A stretch of 64,000 bases of DNA from Candidatus Saccharimonadales bacterium (lineage in GTDB: Bacteria > Patescibacteriota > Saccharimonadia > Saccharimonadales > JBGSXW01), in NCBI GenBank assembly GCA_041751215.1, contig JBGSXW010000002.1, positions 350,591 to 414,590 on the forward strand, in the 5' to 3' direction. Positions 1,776 to 61,025 of this stretch are shown here, piece by piece. Positions within the stretch are counted from its first letter, which is position 1. Every line of letters starts with the position of its first letter. The translations under genes and the position numbers were made by a program. A model generated the notes under the pieces. The model made no database searches, was not told where the DNA came from, and saw nothing but the letters and a program-made list of their open reading frames with translations.

Positions 1776-1805
1776 CGAACCTGGTGCTTTGCACCTTCAG
1801 GTTCG
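1776..1805 (-). other. tRNA-trailer hairpin module (T-arm mimic) downstream of tRNA-Arg
   Basis: In tRNA sense: CGAACCT-GAA-GGTGC-AAA-GCACC-AGGTTCG. The 3' strand CAGGTTCG equals the 5' half of the tRNA-Arg T-arm. The architecture matches the modules at 32114-32143 and 4145-4171. Confidence 0.55.
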
Positions 1806-1835
1806 ATGCTTGTCAGAACTACCACGAAAACAAAA

Positions 1836-1850
1836 CCACCCCTTGGGTGG
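1836..1850. terminator. bidirectional stem-loop terminator
   Basis: CCACCC-CTT-GGGTGG is followed by cattatttt on the plus strand and by TTTTGTTTTC on the minus strand. It sits between the HEPN gene end and the 3' end of tRNA-Arg. Confidence 0.5.
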
Positions 1851-1861
1851 CATTATTTTCG

Positions 1862-2863: not shown

Positions 2864-3724
2864 GTGGTTTTAGGTTATAGTATGCAAATTATGTCTGTTG
2901 ACGTTTTTGACCCCATTCCCTGCTTGGACGAAGCTCGTGAACTAAAGGTTGGCTTCAGAGATCACCCGATTGATCCTGATCAGCCGCTTTTTGATGAACC
3001 GCTGGTTGCATTGGCCGATTACGGTGTTGAAGGTGTTAACTACTACAGTCAACCCAACAATGCCACCATCGATCCGGTTGAAGGCGTAACTCCCAACGTA
3101 TTTGTGCGTCGCACCGTAGCCGAGAAGTTAGCTGCCGCCGATGAGTTTCTTTTAGCCCACGACGGATTAGCGGCAATGTTTGATGGCCGTATTAAACTCT
3201 ACGTTCGCGACGGCTTTCGGTCTCCGGTTTTGCAGGAACACTTAAACAATACTGTGATCCCAAATCTGATCCGGACTCAGAATCCGCAGTGGTCCGAGCA
3301 GCAAGTAGCCCAGCGTGCTTCACAAGTTATGACTTCCGGTCTATGGAGTGAGTCCTCTATACCTCCGCACTTCACAGGTGGCGCCGCCGACGTAATACTG
3401 GTCAGAGCCGATGATGGATCGATTATTAACACCGGTTTTAAAATCGTTACTCTCGGCAGCGAAGCAATTCACACCGACCACCTAGAAGCCATTGATGTTG
3501 AAGAACATGAACTAGTGCTGGCTCGCTATGCTCGGCGCGCTTTGTATAATGTTTTAACTTCCAATGAAGTCGGCAATGTGGCGATGACTAACAATCCAAC
3601 TGAAACTTGGCATTTTTCTATTTACGATCAAATGTGGGCCCGACTCAGTAACCAGCCCGCAGCACTCTATGGAGTCCCGCCCGAAATACCAGAGGAATTA
3701 AATCTGGTGGAAATTAATAATTAG
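2864..3724 (+). CDS. D-alanyl-D-alanine dipeptidase family (peptidase M15, VanX/DdpX-like)
   Basis: PPHFTGGAADVILV and ETWHFS match the zinc-binding H..G.A.D and (E)WWHF motifs. The start is uncertain (GTG 2864, ATG 2881 or ATG 2890). Confidence 0.65.
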   Translation: MVLGYSMQIMSVDVFDPIPCLDEARELKVGFRDHPIDPDQPLFDEPLVALADYGVEGVNYYSQPNNATIDPVEGVTPNVFVRRTVAEKLAAADEFLLAHDGLAAMFDGRIKLYVRDGFRSPVLQEHLNNTVIPNLIRTQNPQWSEQQVAQRASQVMTSGLWSESSIPPHFTGGAADVILVRADDGSIINTGFKIVTLGSEAIHTDHLEAIDVEEHELVLARYARRALYNVLTSNEVGNVAMTNNPTETWHFSIYDQMWARLSNQPAALYGVPPEIPEELNLVEINN

Positions 3725-3727
3725 CTC

Positions 3728-3746
3728 TTGGTCGGGGTGAGAGGAC
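3728..3746 (-). repeat. exact 19-nt copy of the tRNA-Pro(CGG) 3' end (att-like direct repeat)
   Basis: TTGGTCGGGGTGAGAGGAC at 3728-3746 is identical to 3933-3951. It starts 4 nt after the stop of the upstream CDS. Confidence 0.85.
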
Positions 3747-3901
3747 AGCGCTCCGGCTTCGCGCGGGGCTAACCTCCGAATTATTTTGCTCGCTCGTAAA
3801 GTGCGCTTAACGCACCTCGCTCGGCCAAGCAAGGAAAACATAAAGCCAAGACTTTGGCTTTATGCCTATCGGTCGGAGGTTCAAGACCAACAATCAGCCA
3901 A
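3747..3901 (-). repeat. tRNA-trailer module E1 (GC-rich, hairpin-rich, built partly from tRNA-Pro T-arm pieces)
   Basis: AACCTCCGA (3771-3779) is a direct T-stem copy. GGTCGGAGGTTCAAGACC (3871-3888) is a 17/18 inverted copy of the tRNA T-arm. An 11-bp hairpin CATAAAGCCAA/TTGGCTTTATG is also present. There is no credible ORF. Confidence 0.6.
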
Positions 3902-4008: not shown

Positions 4009-4040
4009 ATCAATAACTAAGTCTATCAAACGGTATTAGT

Positions 4041-4053
4041 GCGGTGAAAGGAC
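4041..4053 (-). repeat. degenerate copy of the tRNA-Pro(TGG) 3' end
   Basis: GCGGTGAAAGGAC versus GGGGTGAAAGGAC in the tRNA (4233-4245), 12/13 identical. Its position is analogous to the 3728-3746 copy. Confidence 0.45.
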
Positions 4054-4190
4054 ATCGCGCGGCTAAGAAGTGAGTGAAAGGGGCCGCCTTCGGCGCGTTT
4101 CCTCATGTGCTCGAAGTAAACTTCTGCGCGCATTCGTCACGAACGAACCTTCTGCTACGCAGTACAGGTTCTCGGGTCTATGCATCCGCA
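4054..4190 (-). repeat. tRNA-trailer module E2 (homolog of the module after tRNA-Lys)
   Basis: The reverse complement of 4110-4149 matches 32138-32177 at 33/40 positions without gaps (hand count). The hairpin GAACCT...AGGTTC (4145-4171) has a 3' strand, in tRNA sense, of GAAGGTTCG, which equals the tRNA-Pro(TGG) T-arm. Confidence 0.65.
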
Positions 4191-4227
4191 CCAAGCAAAA
4201 AGCCCTGCATTAGCAGGACTCTTTGCT
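4191..4227 (-). terminator. intrinsic terminator after tRNA-Pro(TGG)
   Basis: Minus sense: AGTCCTGC-TAAT-GCAGGGCT followed by TTTTTGCTTGG. Confidence 0.6.
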
Positions 4228-27603: not shown

Positions 27604-27773
27604 TAAGACCAAAATCTGGGCGTCTACGACAAGGAAGGTGCGAGCAGCGGAAGGGTTGCTGTGCTTATTAGCACTGCGCCCTGAGCAGCGGAGCACCTGA
27701 CGCAGAGTCACAGGTGCCAGCAGCTGGGCTGCTGGGCAGTGGGACGATCGTAGCGTTCAGACTTTTGGTCTTA
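27604..27773 (-). repeat. GC-rich structured intergenic element, copy A
   Basis: A 25-bp closing helix (27604-27629 with 27748-27773) encloses at least three hairpins. The core 27630-27707 is homologous to copies B and C. There is no ORF. Confidence 0.65.
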
Positions 27774-32058: not shown

Positions 32059-32095
32059 ATCTAAGAACCTGCCGTATGGCGGGTTTTTAGATTGG
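32056..32095 (+). terminator. intrinsic terminator after tRNA-Lys
   Basis: CCAATCTAA...AACCTGCC-GTAT-GGCGGGTT-TTT...TTAGATTGG, a nested stem ending in a T-run. Confidence 0.6.
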
Positions 32096-32096
32096 A

Positions 32097-32282
32097 GAGA
32101 TTTATTGCGTACTCGAACCCATGACGGCGTAGCCGTGGGTTCGTTCGTGAGGAGCTCTCGCAGAAGCTTGCTTCGAGAAAGTGACGAAACGGCGAACGTA
32201 AGTGAGCGCCCCCGGTGGGCCAATTTCAATCGCGAGCTGAGAGGGCGAGCGTAGATGCAAATTGCCCCCAGTGGGTTTTCAC
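32097..32282 (+). repeat. tRNA-trailer module D (homolog of E2) with degenerate tRNA-Lys 3'-end copies
   Basis: Hairpin CGAACCC-ATG-ACGGC-GTA-GCCGT-GGGTTCG (32114-32143). 32138-32177 matches E2 at 33/40. CCCCCGGTGGGCC (32209-32221) and CCCCCAGTGGG (32265-32275) echo the tRNA segment CCCAGTGGGCC. Confidence 0.6.
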
Positions 32283-45136: not shown

Positions 45137-47059
45137 TTAGTCGCGTCTTAGTAATGTCGTGAAGGCTTCGGGCGGAATATCAACCTTCCCAAACTTCTTC
45201 ATTCGCTCTTTGCCTTTTTTCTGTTTGGCTAGAACTTTCTTCTTCCGCGAGACATCTCCACCGTACAAACCTTTGGTCACATCTTTACGAAAAGCCGACA
45301 AGTCCTCGCGGGCAATAAACTTTGACCCGATAGCTGCCTGGAGGCTAACTTTAAACTGTTGCCGCGGGATAATGTCTTTGAGTTTTTTGACAGTTTCGCG
45401 CCCAAGACGATCAGCTTCGCTGCGATGAGCCATCAAACTTAGGCTGTCTACCATCTCGCCAGCCACTAAAAAGTCGACTCGGACTAGTTCTTCGGTTCGG
45501 TAATCATCGAGTTCGTAGTTAAAAGACCCGTAGCCACTTGTGGAGCTTTTGAGTTGATCGTAAAAATCGGTTAAAACGTTTGCCAACGGAGCTTCAAAGG
45601 TAATTAGTGCGGTTTTATCGTCAATAAAGTCTAGGCCTTTTTGCAGACCGCGTAGTCCAACCACTAACTGAATGACTGTCCCGACATAATCTTTGGGGAC
45701 AATTATCTCGCCCTTGATCCAAGGTTCTCTGATTTCAACAATGCGACTAACGTCCGGAAGTTCTCCGGCATTTTTAATTTCTATGTCTTCGCCATCGGTC
45801 AGGCTAACTTCGTATCTGGTTGAGGGGTTGGTGATGATCAAATCTAAGTCATAGCCGCGTTCTAGCCGTTCTTTAACAATCTCGAGATGCAGCAACCCTA
45901 AGAATCCCACTCTAAATCCAAAGCCTAGAACCTGCGAAGTTTCTGGCTCGTAGCTCAACGAAGCGTCGTTAAGCGAAAGTTTAGATAGCGCATCCTTGAC
46001 CCGGTTATAGTCGTCGGATGAAGCAGGGAATAGACCAGCATAAACAAATGGTTTGACTTGCTTATATCCTGGCAGCGCTTCTGAGGCAGGATTTAATTGC
46101 AAAGTAACAGTGTCGCCAACTCGAGCATCGGCAACCGTTTTAAGATCAGTTACGATGTAGCCAATCTCGCCAGTTTGCAGAAACTTTGTGGCTTGCCGCT
46201 TAGGAGTCGTGAAGCCAACTTCATTGGCAATTGCGCCTGCACTTGTAGCCATCATTTTAAGCTTGGCTTCTTTATCAATTGCGCCGTCAACAACTCGAAC
46301 CGATAAAATAACTCCTCGATAATCGTCGTACATGGAGTCAAAAATTAGAGCACGAGTCGGAGCGTCTTTATCGCCGGTCGGCGGTGGAACCTGTTCAACT
46401 ACCGAACTTAATACGCGGTCGACGCCCTCACCGGTTTTAGCCGAAATCGGGATAATGTCTTCTTTGCCGCAACCTAACAGGTTAATAATTTCCTGGCTAA
46501 CTCGGTTAACATCTGAGGCCGGCAGATCAATCTTGTTAATGACTGGGATTATCTTTAGGTCAGCCTCGATTGCTAAATAAACATTGGCAAGTGTTTGCGC
46601 TTGAATCCCTTGAGTAGCGTCAACTACTAGCAAGGCGCCCTCGCAGGCTACTAGGCTACGAGAAACTTCGTAGCTGAAATCAACATGACCTGGTGTATCA
46701 ATTAAATTTAGTTGGTGGCCTTGATAATCCATCCGTACGGGCTGCAACTTAATCGTTATGCCCTTTTCGCGCTCGAGATCCATTTGGTCAAGCAGTTGAG
46801 CCTTCATTTCTCGCCGCTCCACTGTATTGGTCAATTCGAGCAAGCGATCAGCTAGCGTAGATTTGCCGTGATCTATATGCGCAATAATACAAAAGTTCCT
46901 GATCGCCTGCTGACCGACCGCATTCACCTGCCTACCGGCAGAGCCGGCTGCACCGTGAATGCTCTTGGCGGACTGCTTTGTCTGTGACTCCGGTACTCGC
47001 TCGTCGTATGTCATATACGGCGTGCTCCGTTCCTCGTCACATCCTTGCATTCCATCCAA
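45137..47059 (-). CDS. lepA: translation elongation factor 4 (LepA)
   Basis: IIAHIDHGKST, DTPGH, NKID and the LepA C-terminal domain. The N-terminal extension is uncertain (alternative start ATG 47014). Confidence 0.95.
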   Translation of the reverse strand: MDGMQGCDEERSTPYMTYDERVPESQTKQSAKSIHGAAGSAGRQVNAVGQQAIRNFCIIAHIDHGKSTLADRLLELTNTVERREMKAQLLDQMDLEREKGITIKLQPVRMDYQGHQLNLIDTPGHVDFSYEVSRSLVACEGALLVVDATQGIQAQTLANVYLAIEADLKIIPVINKIDLPASDVNRVSQEIINLLGCGKEDIIPISAKTGEGVDRVLSSVVEQVPPPTGDKDAPTRALIFDSMYDDYRGVILSVRVVDGAIDKEAKLKMMATSAGAIANEVGFTTPKRQATKFLQTGEIGYIVTDLKTVADARVGDTVTLQLNPASEALPGYKQVKPFVYAGLFPASSDDYNRVKDALSKLSLNDASLSYEPETSQVLGFGFRVGFLGLLHLEIVKERLERGYDLDLIITNPSTRYEVSLTDGEDIEIKNAGELPDVSRIVEIREPWIKGEIIVPKDYVGTVIQLVVGLRGLQKGLDFIDDKTALITFEAPLANVLTDFYDQLKSSTSGYGSFNYELDDYRTEELVRVDFLVAGEMVDSLSLMAHRSEADRLGRETVKKLKDIIPRQQFKVSLQAAIGSKFIAREDLSAFRKDVTKGLYGGDVSRKKKVLAKQKKGKERMKKFGKVDIPPEAFTTLLRRD

Positions 47060-47189
47060 GTCGGCAACAGCGATTTTTTATAGAAGCGGGTCATTAGGTT
47101 AATAGTATAAGATCTTGAGCTAAAAGCACAAAGCGAAATCTATAAAATTATATAACTTCCTGACCTTCTTTTCAGCAATCAAGCACAAG

Positions 47190-47394
47190 GAAGCCTAGAT
47201 TCCTGCTTCCGCAGGAATGACAAGGTTTTGGTCTAAGTTCTTTTCGCGGATGAAATGCAAGGAAGATGTGAAGCACAGAGGCGGGCTGTGCAAGTGGCAC
47301 TGCCCCCGAGTACTGGAGCGTCTGACGCAGAGCCGGCAGAGCTGTTGGCTCTGCCAACAGGCAGGCCGGCGACAGTTCGCCGTGAGAGGTTAGG
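47190..47394 (-). repeat. GC-rich structured intergenic element, copy B
   Basis: The core 47258-47332 aligns to copy C at 53/75 without gaps (hand count) and to copy A with small indels. Hairpins lie at 47199-47218, 47335-47355 and 47367-47382. It abuts the murJ stop. Confidence 0.6.
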
Positions 47395-48987
47395 CTATTG
47401 AATACGAACTGGCTTAAACACAAAGTCAGTAATCTTGCGCACAACTGGGATCGACTCCTTTAGCTGAAGGGCATAGGAGAAACAGAGGTAAACCACCAGA
47501 GTTAGCGCAACCGATAGCACAAACTTAGGCACCAGCGAGAAGAACCCAACATCAGTAATTCTAAGTGGCAGAACTCGTATCAGGAAGTACATGGTGGCTG
47601 AGGTAAATATCGCGGCAATTACCATCCTTAGCAAACCACGGAAAAACTCAGGCTCAAACAAACCGGGGAATCGTCGACTCAAAATGTATATCAAAGTCAA
47701 AACCTCAAAGACGGCCACAATTGATTGCGCCACAGCCAAGCCGTAAATACCTAGATTGGCACCCCACGGAAGCACCAAATAAACCGCCAAGGCAATGTTT
47801 AATAGAATCGCAAACACTGAAACAAAGAATGGTGTTTTGGTATCTTGCTGAGCATAAAAGCTACGTGACACCAGGTGAAAAATACCTCGGAAGAAGATAG
47901 CCATGACCAATAGTCCAAGCAAATCGGCAATGATTGCGTTTCCATCCGCCACTAACAGGCGCACGATATATCCACGCCCAAAGTAGGCAACAATTATGAC
48001 CGGCAGGCTGATCCAGATTAAAACTCGCAAAATGCTGGTGAATTCTTTTTTAAACAAATCCGGCCGACCTTGGTTTAAGCGCTCGCTCATTTGTGGAAAC
48101 GCGGCAGTTGAAATAGCCACGCCAATTAGGTTGATCGGTACCCAGTGCAGCGTAAACGCAACTTCCCAAACGTTAATGAACCCGCGGCCAATACGAGAAG
48201 CCAAGTGAATCTCAACAATACTGTTAAAGTAATCGATTCCCTGGTCGACCGATCGCCAAGGCAGTAAGCTAAGCACCTGTTTAAAGCCACGGCTCCGCCA
48301 GTTAATTCGGTTGTGATACTCAAAACCAATACCAATCATTCCAATAGCAGCAATAGCTAGCTGGGCAAACGACCCCAGCAGCACACCGTAAGCCACACCA
48401 ATAATCCCTAGTTGTGGAGCCAAAAAGACAATCCCAAAAATTATGCCCAGGTTGTAAATGGCTGGAGCCATAGCAAAAAAGAAGAACCTACCCATGGCTT
48501 GCTGAACACTAGTTAAGACACTGGAAATCGCAAACAAAAACGGGTTGAAGGCGATTATTCGCATCATAATTGTAGACAATTCTTTACTGGTTGCCGACAT
48601 TTCATCGGACACAACCAAATCCACAATCTGCCCAGCAAAAATAATGATAAAGATGCTGGCTGCAAAAATAATTATCGCTAAAAAGTTAAGCAAACTAGAC
48701 GACATATCCCAGGCGGACTTCTTATTTCCGTTGGCTAGTCGCTCGTTTAAAACCGGGATGAAGGTGACGCTAAGAGCGCCTGAAACCAAAATGATAAACA
48801 TGAAGTCGGGGAACTTAAAGGCCACGCGGTAAGCATCGAGTTCTTCACTGAAAACCCCAAACTGGGTAATGAGCAGTCGCTCCCTGAAAAGGCTCAAAAT
48901 CATGCCAAAAAAGCTCATGCCGGCCAGCAAGGCTGCTGCCCATCCAATCGATAACTTGGAATTAGCTTTGTTTAGCCATTTTCTCAT
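47395..48987 (-). CDS. murJ: lipid II flippase MurJ (MviN family)
   Basis: A 14-TM MOP-superfamily pattern with the conserved N-terminal segment ...SRLLGFIR-like (FRERLLITQFG). Confidence 0.85.
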   Translation of the reverse strand: MRKWLNKANSKLSIGWAAALLAGMSFFGMILSLFRERLLITQFGVFSEELDAYRVAFKFPDFMFIILVSGALSVTFIPVLNERLANGNKKSAWDMSSSLLNFLAIIIFAASIFIIIFAGQIVDLVVSDEMSATSKELSTIMMRIIAFNPFLFAISSVLTSVQQAMGRFFFFAMAPAIYNLGIIFGIVFLAPQLGIIGVAYGVLLGSFAQLAIAAIGMIGIGFEYHNRINWRSRGFKQVLSLLPWRSVDQGIDYFNSIVEIHLASRIGRGFINVWEVAFTLHWVPINLIGVAISTAAFPQMSERLNQGRPDLFKKEFTSILRVLIWISLPVIIVAYFGRGYIVRLLVADGNAIIADLLGLLVMAIFFRGIFHLVSRSFYAQQDTKTPFFVSVFAILLNIALAVYLVLPWGANLGIYGLAVAQSIVAVFEVLTLIYILSRRFPGLFEPEFFRGLLRMVIAAIFTSATMYFLIRVLPLRITDVGFFSLVPKFVLSVALTLVVYLCFSYALQLKESIPVVRKITDFVFKPVRIQ

Positions 48988-60042: not shown

Positions 60043-60525
60043 CTATCTAGCAAGTGCGCGTAGAGTAAGTAAATCGACTTCTGATTTGTTGTGTCTATCA
60101 TCGTTGACCCACGCAGCTTCAATGGTTGCAACGTAGATTCTCAGCGGGCTTTCATCAAGAAAATCCTCGACTGGTGGCACGGTCTTGCCCCGAAAACGAA
60201 CTTCCAGTAAGCGCTTGAGCTCATTCGTATCAACCACTTCATGCGCTACGGCCTTGGTGTAAAAACCAAAGTCGCCCACGTCTTCTGTTTCACTGAAAAC
60301 GGTAATAGATACCTGAGGATTTTTCTTAATATGCTCTGAGTGCTGCGTATCTTTTAAAGATTTCCAGATGATATTCACGTCTGAGTCATAGCTCAAGTTC
60401 AAGCAAACACACCACGGCGCTCCCTCCGAATCGACAGTCGCCAAAGCAAACTGCTTGTGACGCGGCAAGTTATCGAGCACAAAGGACGCAACAGATTTTG
60501 GATCGTTTTCGTTAAAGTTGCTCAT
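60043..60525 (-). CDS. pyridoxamine 5'-phosphate oxidase-like FMN-binding protein
   Basis: The size and split-barrel pattern fit (...ATVDSEGAPWCVCLN...). This is a weak motif-level call. Confidence 0.5.
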   Translation of the reverse strand: MSNFNENDPKSVASFVLDNLPRHKQFALATVDSEGAPWCVCLNLSYDSDVNIIWKSLKDTQHSEHIKKNPQVSITVFSETEDVGDFGFYTKAVAHEVVDTNELKRLLEVRFRGKTVPPVEDFLDESPLRIYVATIEAAWVNDDRHNKSEVDLLTLRALAR

Positions 60526-60540
60526 AAGGGTAATTATACA

Positions 60541-60729
60541 CGTCGAGAAGTGGCGGCCTTGTTAACAGAACCGCAGTGCTTGATTTGGTTTCTGGCCAGG
60601 AAGAACTGAAACACAGACCGATGCTGTGTAACTGACACCGCTCGGGAGTATTGGAGGCTCTGACGCCGCCAGAAAGCAAAAGGCCGGCAGCGCAGTGAGC
60701 TATGCTCGCTGGCAGGCCGGCCGATCAAG
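60541..60729 (-). repeat. GC-rich structured intergenic element, copy C
   Basis: The core 60596-60670 aligns to copy B at 53/75 without gaps. The hairpin GCTGTGT/ACACCGC covaries with GCTGTGC/GCACTGC of A and B. An 8-bp hairpin CAGTGAGC-TAT-GCTCGCTG is present. Confidence 0.6.
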
Positions 60730-60734
60730 TTCTG

Positions 60735-60781
60735 TGGTAGCGGCGACTGGATTTGAACCAGTGACCCCAGGCTTATGAGTC
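60735..60781 (-). pseudogene. truncated tRNA(CAT): 3' half only (anticodon loop to CCA)
   Basis: GACTCATAAGCCTGGGGTCACTGGTTCAAATCCAGTCGCCGCTACCA is 40/47 identical to the 3' half of the intact tRNA at 60949-61025, with compensatory T-stem changes. There is no matching 5' acceptor strand upstream. Confidence 0.8.
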
Positions 60782-60948
60782 TTGCCTTTGACGCTAATGC
60801 TAACGACTTCACCAAGGTGTACGAACGAGCATCACTGCGTTTTCGTCAGCACATGATTGGTGCTATTGCCGTCAACTCTAGCCGTCAGAATGATTAACAC
60901 GAGCAGGGATTAAGTTGTTATTTGTATAACTTTTTTAATAAAGTCAAA

Positions 60949-61025
60949 TGGTAGCACCGACAGGAATTGAACCTGTGACCTTAGGCTTATGAGTCCTACG
61001 CTCTAACCAACTGAGCTACGGTGCC
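60949..61025 (-). tRNA. tRNA with CAT anticodon (elongator Met or lysidine-dependent Ile2)
   Basis: GGCACCG/CGGTGCT acceptor, loop CTCATAA, T-arm ACAGG-TTCAATT-CCTGT, encoded ACCA. It is not initiator-like. There is an A31-G39 mismatch. Confidence 0.9.

Follow-up and report, generated by a model that had tools for sequence, protein, structure and literature searches.

Results

Element C and its surroundings

Element C lies on the plus strand at about 60569-60745 of the window (the whole 64-kb stretch of DNA that was analysed). On one side of it, a PNPOx-family gene (60043-60525) begins on the minus strand, and on the other lies a minus-strand tRNA(CAT) 3′ fragment (60735-60795), which consists of an anticodon arm, a T arm, the 3′ strand of the acceptor stem and CCA. 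An intact tRNA(CAT), called as Met, is found at 60949-61025, also on the minus strand. A preliminary description of this DNA had likewise put C between the gene start and the tRNA fragment, and this location holds, but the extent of 60541-60729 given there does not. In the covariance-model search, C was scored by the R2 model at 125.6 bits (E 5.9e-34), which shows that C is a true member of the family, as had been proposed, and a full canonical copy with a three-way junction. Its predicted fold has a minimum free energy of -85.8 kcal/mol and a z of -6.8, far beyond chance.

The outer stem of C, P0, is formed by 13 bp between 60571-60583 and 60725-60737, and the final 3 nt of its 3′ strand are complementary to the CCA end of the tRNA fragment. 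Inside P0, a long arm (60584-60680, plus strand like all helices of C) carries P0a, P1 and P2a-c with loops between them, and the apical stem P2d. P0a pairs 60584-87 with 60677-80, and P1 pairs 60589-96 with 60668-75 around one central mismatch; a single pair (G60599 with C60664) is followed by P2a (60602-07 with 60656-61), P2b (60610-14 with 60648-52) and P2c (60618-19 with 60644-45). These helices are separated by conserved tandem G.A loops (AGGAAG...CUGAC; GA/GGA). The second arm is the hairpin P3 (60682-60722), with a conserved internal loop (CAG.GC / GGCAGG) and the apex GCU..GC.

P2d (60623-60641) is the hairpin on which the preliminary description was built (GCUGUGU aacug ACACCGC), and it is the mere tip of a much larger fold. 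The quoted heptamers are present where they had been placed: GCTGTGT at 60623 and ACACCGC at 60635 in C, and GCTGTGC/GCACTGC at 27658/27671 in copy A and 47285/47297 in copy B. The change of the closing pair from C-G to U-A had been described as structure-preserving covariation, and the family alignment bears this out (columns 77/85: UA 60, CG 27), the hairpin pair being one of 56 covarying pairs. The internal mismatch said to be retained is indeed U.U or U.C at the third position in A, B and C, but most members of the family have an ordinary pair there (CG 32, UA 24).

Four copies in the window

A full-sensitivity R2 scan of the 64 kb found exactly four copies. C had been presented as the third copy of the family; its membership stands, and copy D adds a fourth. 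D is canonical and lies on the minus strand at 46895-47075 (R2 155 bits), having first been picked up by the R1 model at about 46906-47053 on that strand. A (27614-27768; R1 133.6 bits, R2 79 bits) and B (about 47236-47396; R1 143.5 bits, R2 80-84 bits) are short variants on the plus strand without the 3′ strands of P1 and P0a, so that in B the outer stem directly encloses P2 and P3. A short form similar to A and B also occurs in locus L092. A, B and C can be aligned at about 67% identity with both BLAST and MAFFT.

A is located between a DEAD-box helicase gene, on the side of its stop codon, and the promoter from which the next gene on the minus strand is read. D lies within the leader and N-terminal region of lepA, in the usual coding frame of the family (LDGMQGCDEERS...), and the lepA ORF (45137-47059, minus strand) is open throughout D. 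A sigma70-like promoter (47175-47147, minus strand; consensus scan) is placed upstream of both D and lepA. The LepA protein of locus L056, which is 71% identical, starts 49 residues later and does not contain the D-encoded residues; D thus gives LepA an apparent N-terminal extension of 49 residues. In L015, an S1-like protein shows the same pattern at its N-terminus. In the interval that separates D from B, which are divergent, there is a perfect 8-bp hairpin, ATTCCTGC-ttcc-GCAGGAAT (47200-47222, plus strand), with a weak, sub-threshold Rfam match to FtrB (20.9 bits, E 0.66).

Fold and covariation of the family

RNAalifold on three sequences alone gave 41 pairs, 21 of them with compensatory changes, and the plus strand folded much better than the minus strand (-109/-104/-108 vs -87/-86/-98 kcal/mol), the reverse strand also folding well (z -6.0). 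Further sequences revealed a local P1/P0a helix and the long outer P0, and the R1 model was therefore replaced by R2; the closing helix of R1, a 5-bp stem that closed P2 and P3, is wrong for most members. R2, for which 40 sequences were used, gives canonical copies 125-184 bits and finds 94 copies, of which 89 are distinct, in 559 kb (the window plus the loci described below).

The element is usually about 175-185 nt long and consists of an outer stem P0 of at least 13 bp, the long arm and the hairpin P3, joined in a three-way junction with almost no linker. The long-arm consensus begins with P0a (yyUG:CArA) and P1 (UGCAGURC:GYAAUGCG with a central G.A) and continues with P2a-d, which are divided by tandem G.A loops (AAG-GA-AG...CU-GA-C, GA/GGA and others) and capped by GUAU...AUAC. 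P3 is a hairpin with a CGG/GGCAGG internal loop. Variants without P3 and variants without the 3′ strand of P1 occur.

In the alignment of the 89 distinct copies (A8), 95.1% of the cells are paired and 56 of the 60 pairs have changed on both sides (1405 cells); A8 is fitted to R2, which favours structure, and a MAFFT-only alignment agrees for 50 of the 60 pairs. The observed covariation was reached by none of 500 shuffles, and pairing fell to 23-41% when the partners were slid as a control. P0 is hypervariable in sequence from copy to copy, with two-sided changes in 13 of its 13 pairs. With covariation this strong, sequence alone essentially settles the secondary structure, which makes the family well suited to study.

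Distribution of the family

One genome per species was searched with a pattern made from unpaired nucleotides that are conserved, and eight hits were confirmed by the covariance model: six in Saccharibacteria/Patescibacteria MAGs, one in Nocardiopsis and one in the window's own contig. The taxonomic range of the family is drawn from seven genome records. A second pattern covered the P2 arm only, so that P3 was not pre-selected; it matched at least 120 metagenome stretches, and nearly all of the 80 loci that were fetched were confirmed by the covariance model. Contigs of Saccharibacteria/Patescibacteria commonly carry the element. Gene calls in the loci were made with a longest-ORF heuristic.

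The Nocardiopsis copy (L020 5308-5483, 139.8 bits; Nocardiopsis sp. LOL_012, NZ_JBHMIV010000001.1) is the only confirmed one outside Patescibacteria. It lies in frame within a VirD4/TraG-type coupling-protein gene of an apparent integrated (conjugative) element beside tRNA-Asn, which also encodes an XRE regulator and an MT-A70 methylase. The phylum of Nocardiopsis includes hosts of Saccharibacteria. In addition, six metagenome contigs of 65-70% G+C (L033, L044, L045, L064, L079 and L095) carry diverged copies of 32-62 bits in which the P2 arm is kept and P3 is different or missing, which suggests that the range of the family, or of the long arm at least, may reach beyond Saccharibacteria.

Gene context and in-frame copies

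Copies are found at unrelated loci, several per genome and in both orientations. The flanks show each of the four possible arrangements. Both neighbours are antisense to the copy in 28 cases and sense to it in 14; a further 13 copies are placed between divergent and 4 between convergent genes. Apart from syntenic housekeeping genes (alaS|pilM in 5 loci, mnmA, lepA), no protein family is repeatedly found next to the element. Intergenic copies are usually pressed against the 3′ end of a gene. Measured on the R1 core-model hit, the stop codon of a convergent gene is 0 ± 10 nt from the end of the hit, and that of a co-oriented gene precedes the hit by about 25 nt, which places it a few nt from the start of P0. 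In the alaS|pilM spacer of three diverged genomes (L007 ~2270-2285, L048 ~2935-2950 and L099), an extended -10 (TGnTATAAT) that serves the downstream pilM-like gene directly follows the 3′ end of the element, which is placed exactly between the alaS stop codon and this promoter.

Copies also lie in frame within at least six different protein genes, with Pfam domains on both sides of the inserts. In mnmA (L046 and L062), the copy is antisense and adds about 45 residues to a loop; in L070 and L101 this loop is short and the site is empty. Sense copies are found in folD (L066), msrA (L051), an amine-oxidase-type gene (L082), a Mur-ligase-type gene (L067) and the VirD4/TraG-type gene of L020, and they are read in one constant frame (...LDAVQGSxExRSKxYxxVxRTSTGAxDxAMRQxP...). 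Some sites are therefore occupied in certain lineages and empty in others. When the mnmA insertion was compared with the empty sites, no direct repeat indicating a target-site duplication was seen at this one site.

Constraint on the fold at fixed loci

G.U pairs are far more frequent than A.C pairs on the element strand, even in copies that are antisense to both neighbours (53 vs 9), and conserved wobbles are present in P1 (U.G) and at the base of the apical stem (G.U). The syntenic alaS|pilM copies differ by 4-15 double compensatory changes, the L005 and L076 copies, whose shared neighbour is a conserved membrane-protein gene adjoining trmD, by 21, and the two mnmA-internal copies by 6 double changes among 27 differences. 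Divergence of syntenic copies by compensatory change shows that the fold is still constrained in place, and such continuing constraint does not fit inert junk.

No -10-like peak was seen at a fixed distance upstream of the copies, and consensus scans found no plus-strand promoter or terminator for A, B or C, the promoter consensus being of the E. coli type. Several antisense copies leave a gap of only about 10 nt between P0 and the ribosome-binding site of the next gene. We cannot reconcile ongoing constraint with antisense copies that leave no room for a promoter. No near-identical pairs were seen among the copies, and there is thus no sign of recent movement.

Comparison with known families

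At the Rfam 15 gathering threshold, the four window copies and seven foreign copies matched only tRNAs, and matches up to E<=10 were noise. Neither Pfam nor NCBIfam matched the translated element, and nothing was found among plasmids, phages and IMG/VR. When a profile of the in-frame peptides was run against a protein database, it returned only four spurious ORFs of 57-60 aa, the word filter limiting the sensitivity of this search. In the searchable literature on structured RNA, ncRNA, MITEs and palindromic repeats of Saccharibacteria/Patescibacteria, no description of the family was found.

The closest counterpart is offered by the Rickettsia palindromic elements (RPE), namely RPE-1 and its relatives (Ogata et al. 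2000, summarised in PMC10969869), which are found between genes and in frame within genes. Like RPE, the element is about 100-180 bp long with a stable predicted fold, exists in dozens of diverged copies without a transposase of its own, and occurs in a reduced-genome, host-dependent bacterium. Four such short, folded copies without mobility genes are present in the 64 kb of the window and 94 in 559 kb. As with RPE, copies are intergenic and, unusually often, in frame within unrelated housekeeping genes to which they add a peptide; the frame is kept in six unrelated genes, and relatives have empty mnmA sites. The element differs from RPE in phylum, in its three-way junction and conserved non-Watson-Crick loops, in much stronger covariation evidence, and in having one member in an actinobacterial mobile element. 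In addition, about 10% of copies lie in ORFs, whereas for RPE-1 it is nearly half. In its behaviour the element resembles RPE and, in part, ERIC; the likeness is one of functional class, and sequence homology to RPE is unlikely given the different phylum.

Other repeats share some of these features. ERIC/IRU repeats belong to Enterobacteriaceae and Vibrionaceae. Like them, the element is an imperfect palindrome in either orientation in transcribed intergenic DNA, with a conserved structure, some intragenic copies and a copy number that varies widely by lineage, and it is old and has no known mobilising enzyme. Unlike ERIC, a single 127-bp hairpin with conserved arms, it has its most variable part in the terminal stem and its conserved motifs in the interior. 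With MITEs (for example, Correia in Neisseria) it shares small size, non-coding nature, multiple copies and long RNA stems if co-transcribed. MITEs are defined by conserved terminal inverted repeats that match an IS transposase and by target-site duplications. Since the termini are variable (P0 being the most variable part), no target duplication was seen at the one site compared and no parent IS was found, with no transposase near any copy, the definition of a MITE does not apply. The elaborate covarying fold, the conserved loops and the lack of a known function recall raiA-motif-type ncRNAs of Rfam; unlike these, which are neither within protein genes nor in both orientations in operons, the element is found in both settings.

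Several further candidates were rejected. REP/BIME repeats with RAYT (clustered palindromes of 20-40 nt with a 5′ GTAG) differ in size and architecture. A retron msr-msd does not match a multi-copy family that enters ORFs and has no RT adjoining any copy, and a riboswitch or cis leader does not match 28 antisense vs 14 sense copies and neighbours that are diverse housekeeping genes. Integron attC sites, IS200/IS605 ends and IS110 bridge RNA, as well as 6S RNA, Y RNA, SRP RNA, 5S rRNA, hammerhead ribozymes and k-turns, were ruled out on architecture or context.

Origin and role of the element

On balance, the C family is probably an old, non-autonomous, structure-constrained RPE-like insertion element of Saccharibacteria that has kept the fold of its own strand. 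The in-frame copies within protein genes are the decisive observation for reading it as an insertion element. The fold would be the unit that is recognised or copied during spread, probably in single-stranded form (RNA or ssDNA) and with the polarity of the element, and the surviving copies would be those at places where insertion is least harmful, which are right after the 3′ end of a gene or in surface loops and termini of proteins. At C, the 3′ end of the element would have come to lie against the 3′ end of a gene, next to an unrelated att-like partial tRNA duplication. It counts against this reading that no transposase or other mobilising enzyme was found, that the ends of the element (P0) are its least conserved part, contrary to a MITE, that the mnmA insertion shows no target duplication and that near-identical copies are lacking. 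Many copies are, in addition, antisense to the local operon and leave a promoter no space, which makes expression of the constrained strand hard to explain. The deeply conserved unpaired nucleotides, the conserved G.U wobbles and the ongoing compensation at fixed loci are, moreover, more in keeping with an RNA of use to the host than with purely selfish DNA.

In Saccharibacteria, which live as ultra-small epibionts and have very compact genomes, it is unexpected to find a repeat that fills about 1% of this 64-kb window, has long been kept folded and is tolerated in essential enzymes. The family is absent from RNA-family catalogues even though its structure is essentially solved, and, next to Rickettsia, it provides a second, independent system for asking how such palindromes get into proteins and why they are kept. 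Annotation that takes the element into account avoids false N-terminal extensions (as in lepA), spurious small ORFs and 'novel domains' that are misread.

It is possible, although we consider it doubtful, that the family is a new structured-RNA class, that is, a 180-nt three-way-junction RNA and not dead selfish DNA, whose own-strand fold, G.A loops and G.U wobbles would still be selected at every locus, within coding sequences and antisense to operons as well. Such an RNA would be expected to have a partner acting in trans (a protein or a ribozyme-like activity), and it might copy itself into genes by way of RNA; the Nocardiopsis copy would hint at an exchange between Saccharibacteria and actinobacterial hosts.

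In a related explanation, A, B, C and D would each be a gene for an independently transcribed, trans-acting sRNA of about 180 nt, with a protein-binding or scaffold role, and the copies would be paralogues. The very strong covariation, the conserved internal loops, the G.U wobbles kept on one strand, the syntenic copies held by compensatory change and an orientation that is independent of the neighbours all argue for such genes. They would, however, be expected to have their own promoter and terminator at a conserved distance, which consensus scans did not find, and the roughly 10 nt between P0 and the ribosome-binding site in several antisense copies, the in-frame copies in at least six protein genes and the variants without P3 or without the 3′ strand of P1 are also at odds with them. 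We therefore regard a family of sRNA genes as unlikely.

The position of most intergenic copies right after a stop codon (about 0 nt for convergent genes and a few nt from P0 for co-oriented ones) is what would be expected of a domesticated cis-acting mRNA element, such as a 3′-end protector, a terminator without a U-tract or an RNase processing site. The TGnTATAAT of the next gene directly after the alaS|pilM copies agrees with this, and both the length and stability of P0 and the high G+C content of P3 would be in keeping with the role, for which ERIC and Correia repeats provide a precedent (PMC10969869). This explanation also seems rather unlikely to us, since 13 copies lie between divergent gene starts, where there is no 3′ end, and since constraint acts on the element's own strand even where the mRNA carries the reverse complement. 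Furthermore, copies within ORFs cannot be terminators, and no U-tract follows the element.

Alternatively, the element could be a palindrome at the DNA level without an RNA role, whose pairing is kept by intrastrand hairpins and mismatch correction (arm-to-arm conversion) during replication. Such a process would keep pairing whatever the direction of transcription, also within ORFs, and the z of -6.0 for the reverse strand agrees with it. Correction of this kind would, however, erase the conserved G.A loops, bulges and G.U positions, which have been kept across phyla, and the excess of G.U over A.C on one strand is not expected for duplex DNA; the 2:1 antisense excess would also put the folded strand mostly on the leading-strand template. 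A purely DNA-level palindrome is thus quite improbable.

tRNA genes and tRNA fragments

The truncated tRNA beside C had been noted before, and it is real: 60735-60779 (minus strand) shares 85% identity with the final 45-47 nt, at the 3′ end, of the intact tRNA(CAT), with an alignment score of 55 vs a shuffled maximum of 24. That C adjoins it is equally clear, since TGG at 60735-60737, the end of P0, complements the CCA of the fragment. The T stem of the fragment is well formed and differs from that of the neighbouring tRNA by compensatory changes; the fragment is of the same tRNA(CAT) type as this neighbour, and there is no fit between its acceptor strand and the resident 5′ half. From these features, it resembles the partial, att-type duplication that an integrative element leaves behind, or else the remnant of a foreign copy. 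No integrases or transposases are found near C and the tRNA clusters, where there are only housekeeping genes.

The preliminary description went further and tied the whole family to tRNA genes and tRNA fragments. Besides C, there are copies near a tRNA(CAT) of this type (49 nt downstream of it, L023/L080), tRNA-Arg (73 nt away, L100) and tRNA-Leu (24 nt away, L089), but copy and tRNA have one relative orientation in the window and another in L080. Enrichment near tRNAs, on which the proposed tie depended, is absent in 552 kb of loci, which were chosen for containing the element: a tRNA is the immediate neighbour of 10 of the 94 copies vs 13.6% of all inter-feature gaps (binomial p=0.84). Likewise, tRNA-like sequence is present in 5 of 180 element flanks (2.8%) vs 1.7% of random windows, and C is the only copy that touches a tRNA fragment. 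Given the lack of enrichment, the position of C is read as the usual habit of the element, which is to lie against the 3′ end of a gene, here that of the tRNA, and its place beside a broken tRNA is a coincidence.

The second part of the proposed tie, a T-arm-mimic hairpin in A (GCACCTG...CAGGTGC), fares no better, since it joins strands of two different covarying helices. In A, GCACCU (27693-27698) pairs with AGGUGC (27636-27641) as P2a, which covaries in the family, and CAGGUGC (27711-) is part of the 5′ strand of P3; the proposed hairpin is missing from B, C and D. The CGAACCTG/CAGGTTCG matches behind tRNA-Arg, tRNA-Gly and tRNA-Lys lie below the 95th percentile of shuffles. Weak R1 hits in the tRNA trailers had made these candidates for diverged family members; this was dropped, as R2 gave only noise there (best 10 bits, E about 0.3). 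A mechanistic tie to tRNAs is therefore close to refuted, and we give it very little credence.

The tRNA trailers form a repeat that is separate from the A-D family. Those of tRNA-Arg (1776-1861, minus strand), tRNA-Pro(TGG) (4040-4227, minus strand) and tRNA-Lys (32059-32260, plus strand) have one common layout, in which a terminator-like hairpin and a T-run lie within an inverted repeat of the tRNA 3′ tail, followed by a hairpin GAACC...GGTTCG that runs into GGTTCGTTCGTGA. The Pro(TGG) and Lys trailers can be aligned over about 130 nt (...CGCAGAAGyTTrCTTCGAG...GAAACG...). A second att-like case in the window is a perfect 18-nt duplicate of the 3′ end of tRNA-Pro(CGG) (GTCCTCTCACCCCGACCA) at 3729-3746 (minus strand), 187 nt downstream of the gene, with a score of 36 vs a shuffled maximum of 23 and no integrase nearby.

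The anticodon arm of the intact tRNA at 60949-61025 (GGACUCAUAAGCC) resembles that of a third CAT type seen in L023, L058 and L080, which in L023 occurs beside elongator-like and initiator-like tRNAs. Judging from this arm, the tRNA(CAT) may be tRNA-Ile2 (lysidine type) and not Met. In L076, ARAGORN called two tRNA-like genes with two-base 'anticodons' (tRNA-???) at 3686-3758 and 3827-3900 on the minus strand, which may contain introns or be otherwise aberrant, as described for Patescibacteria.
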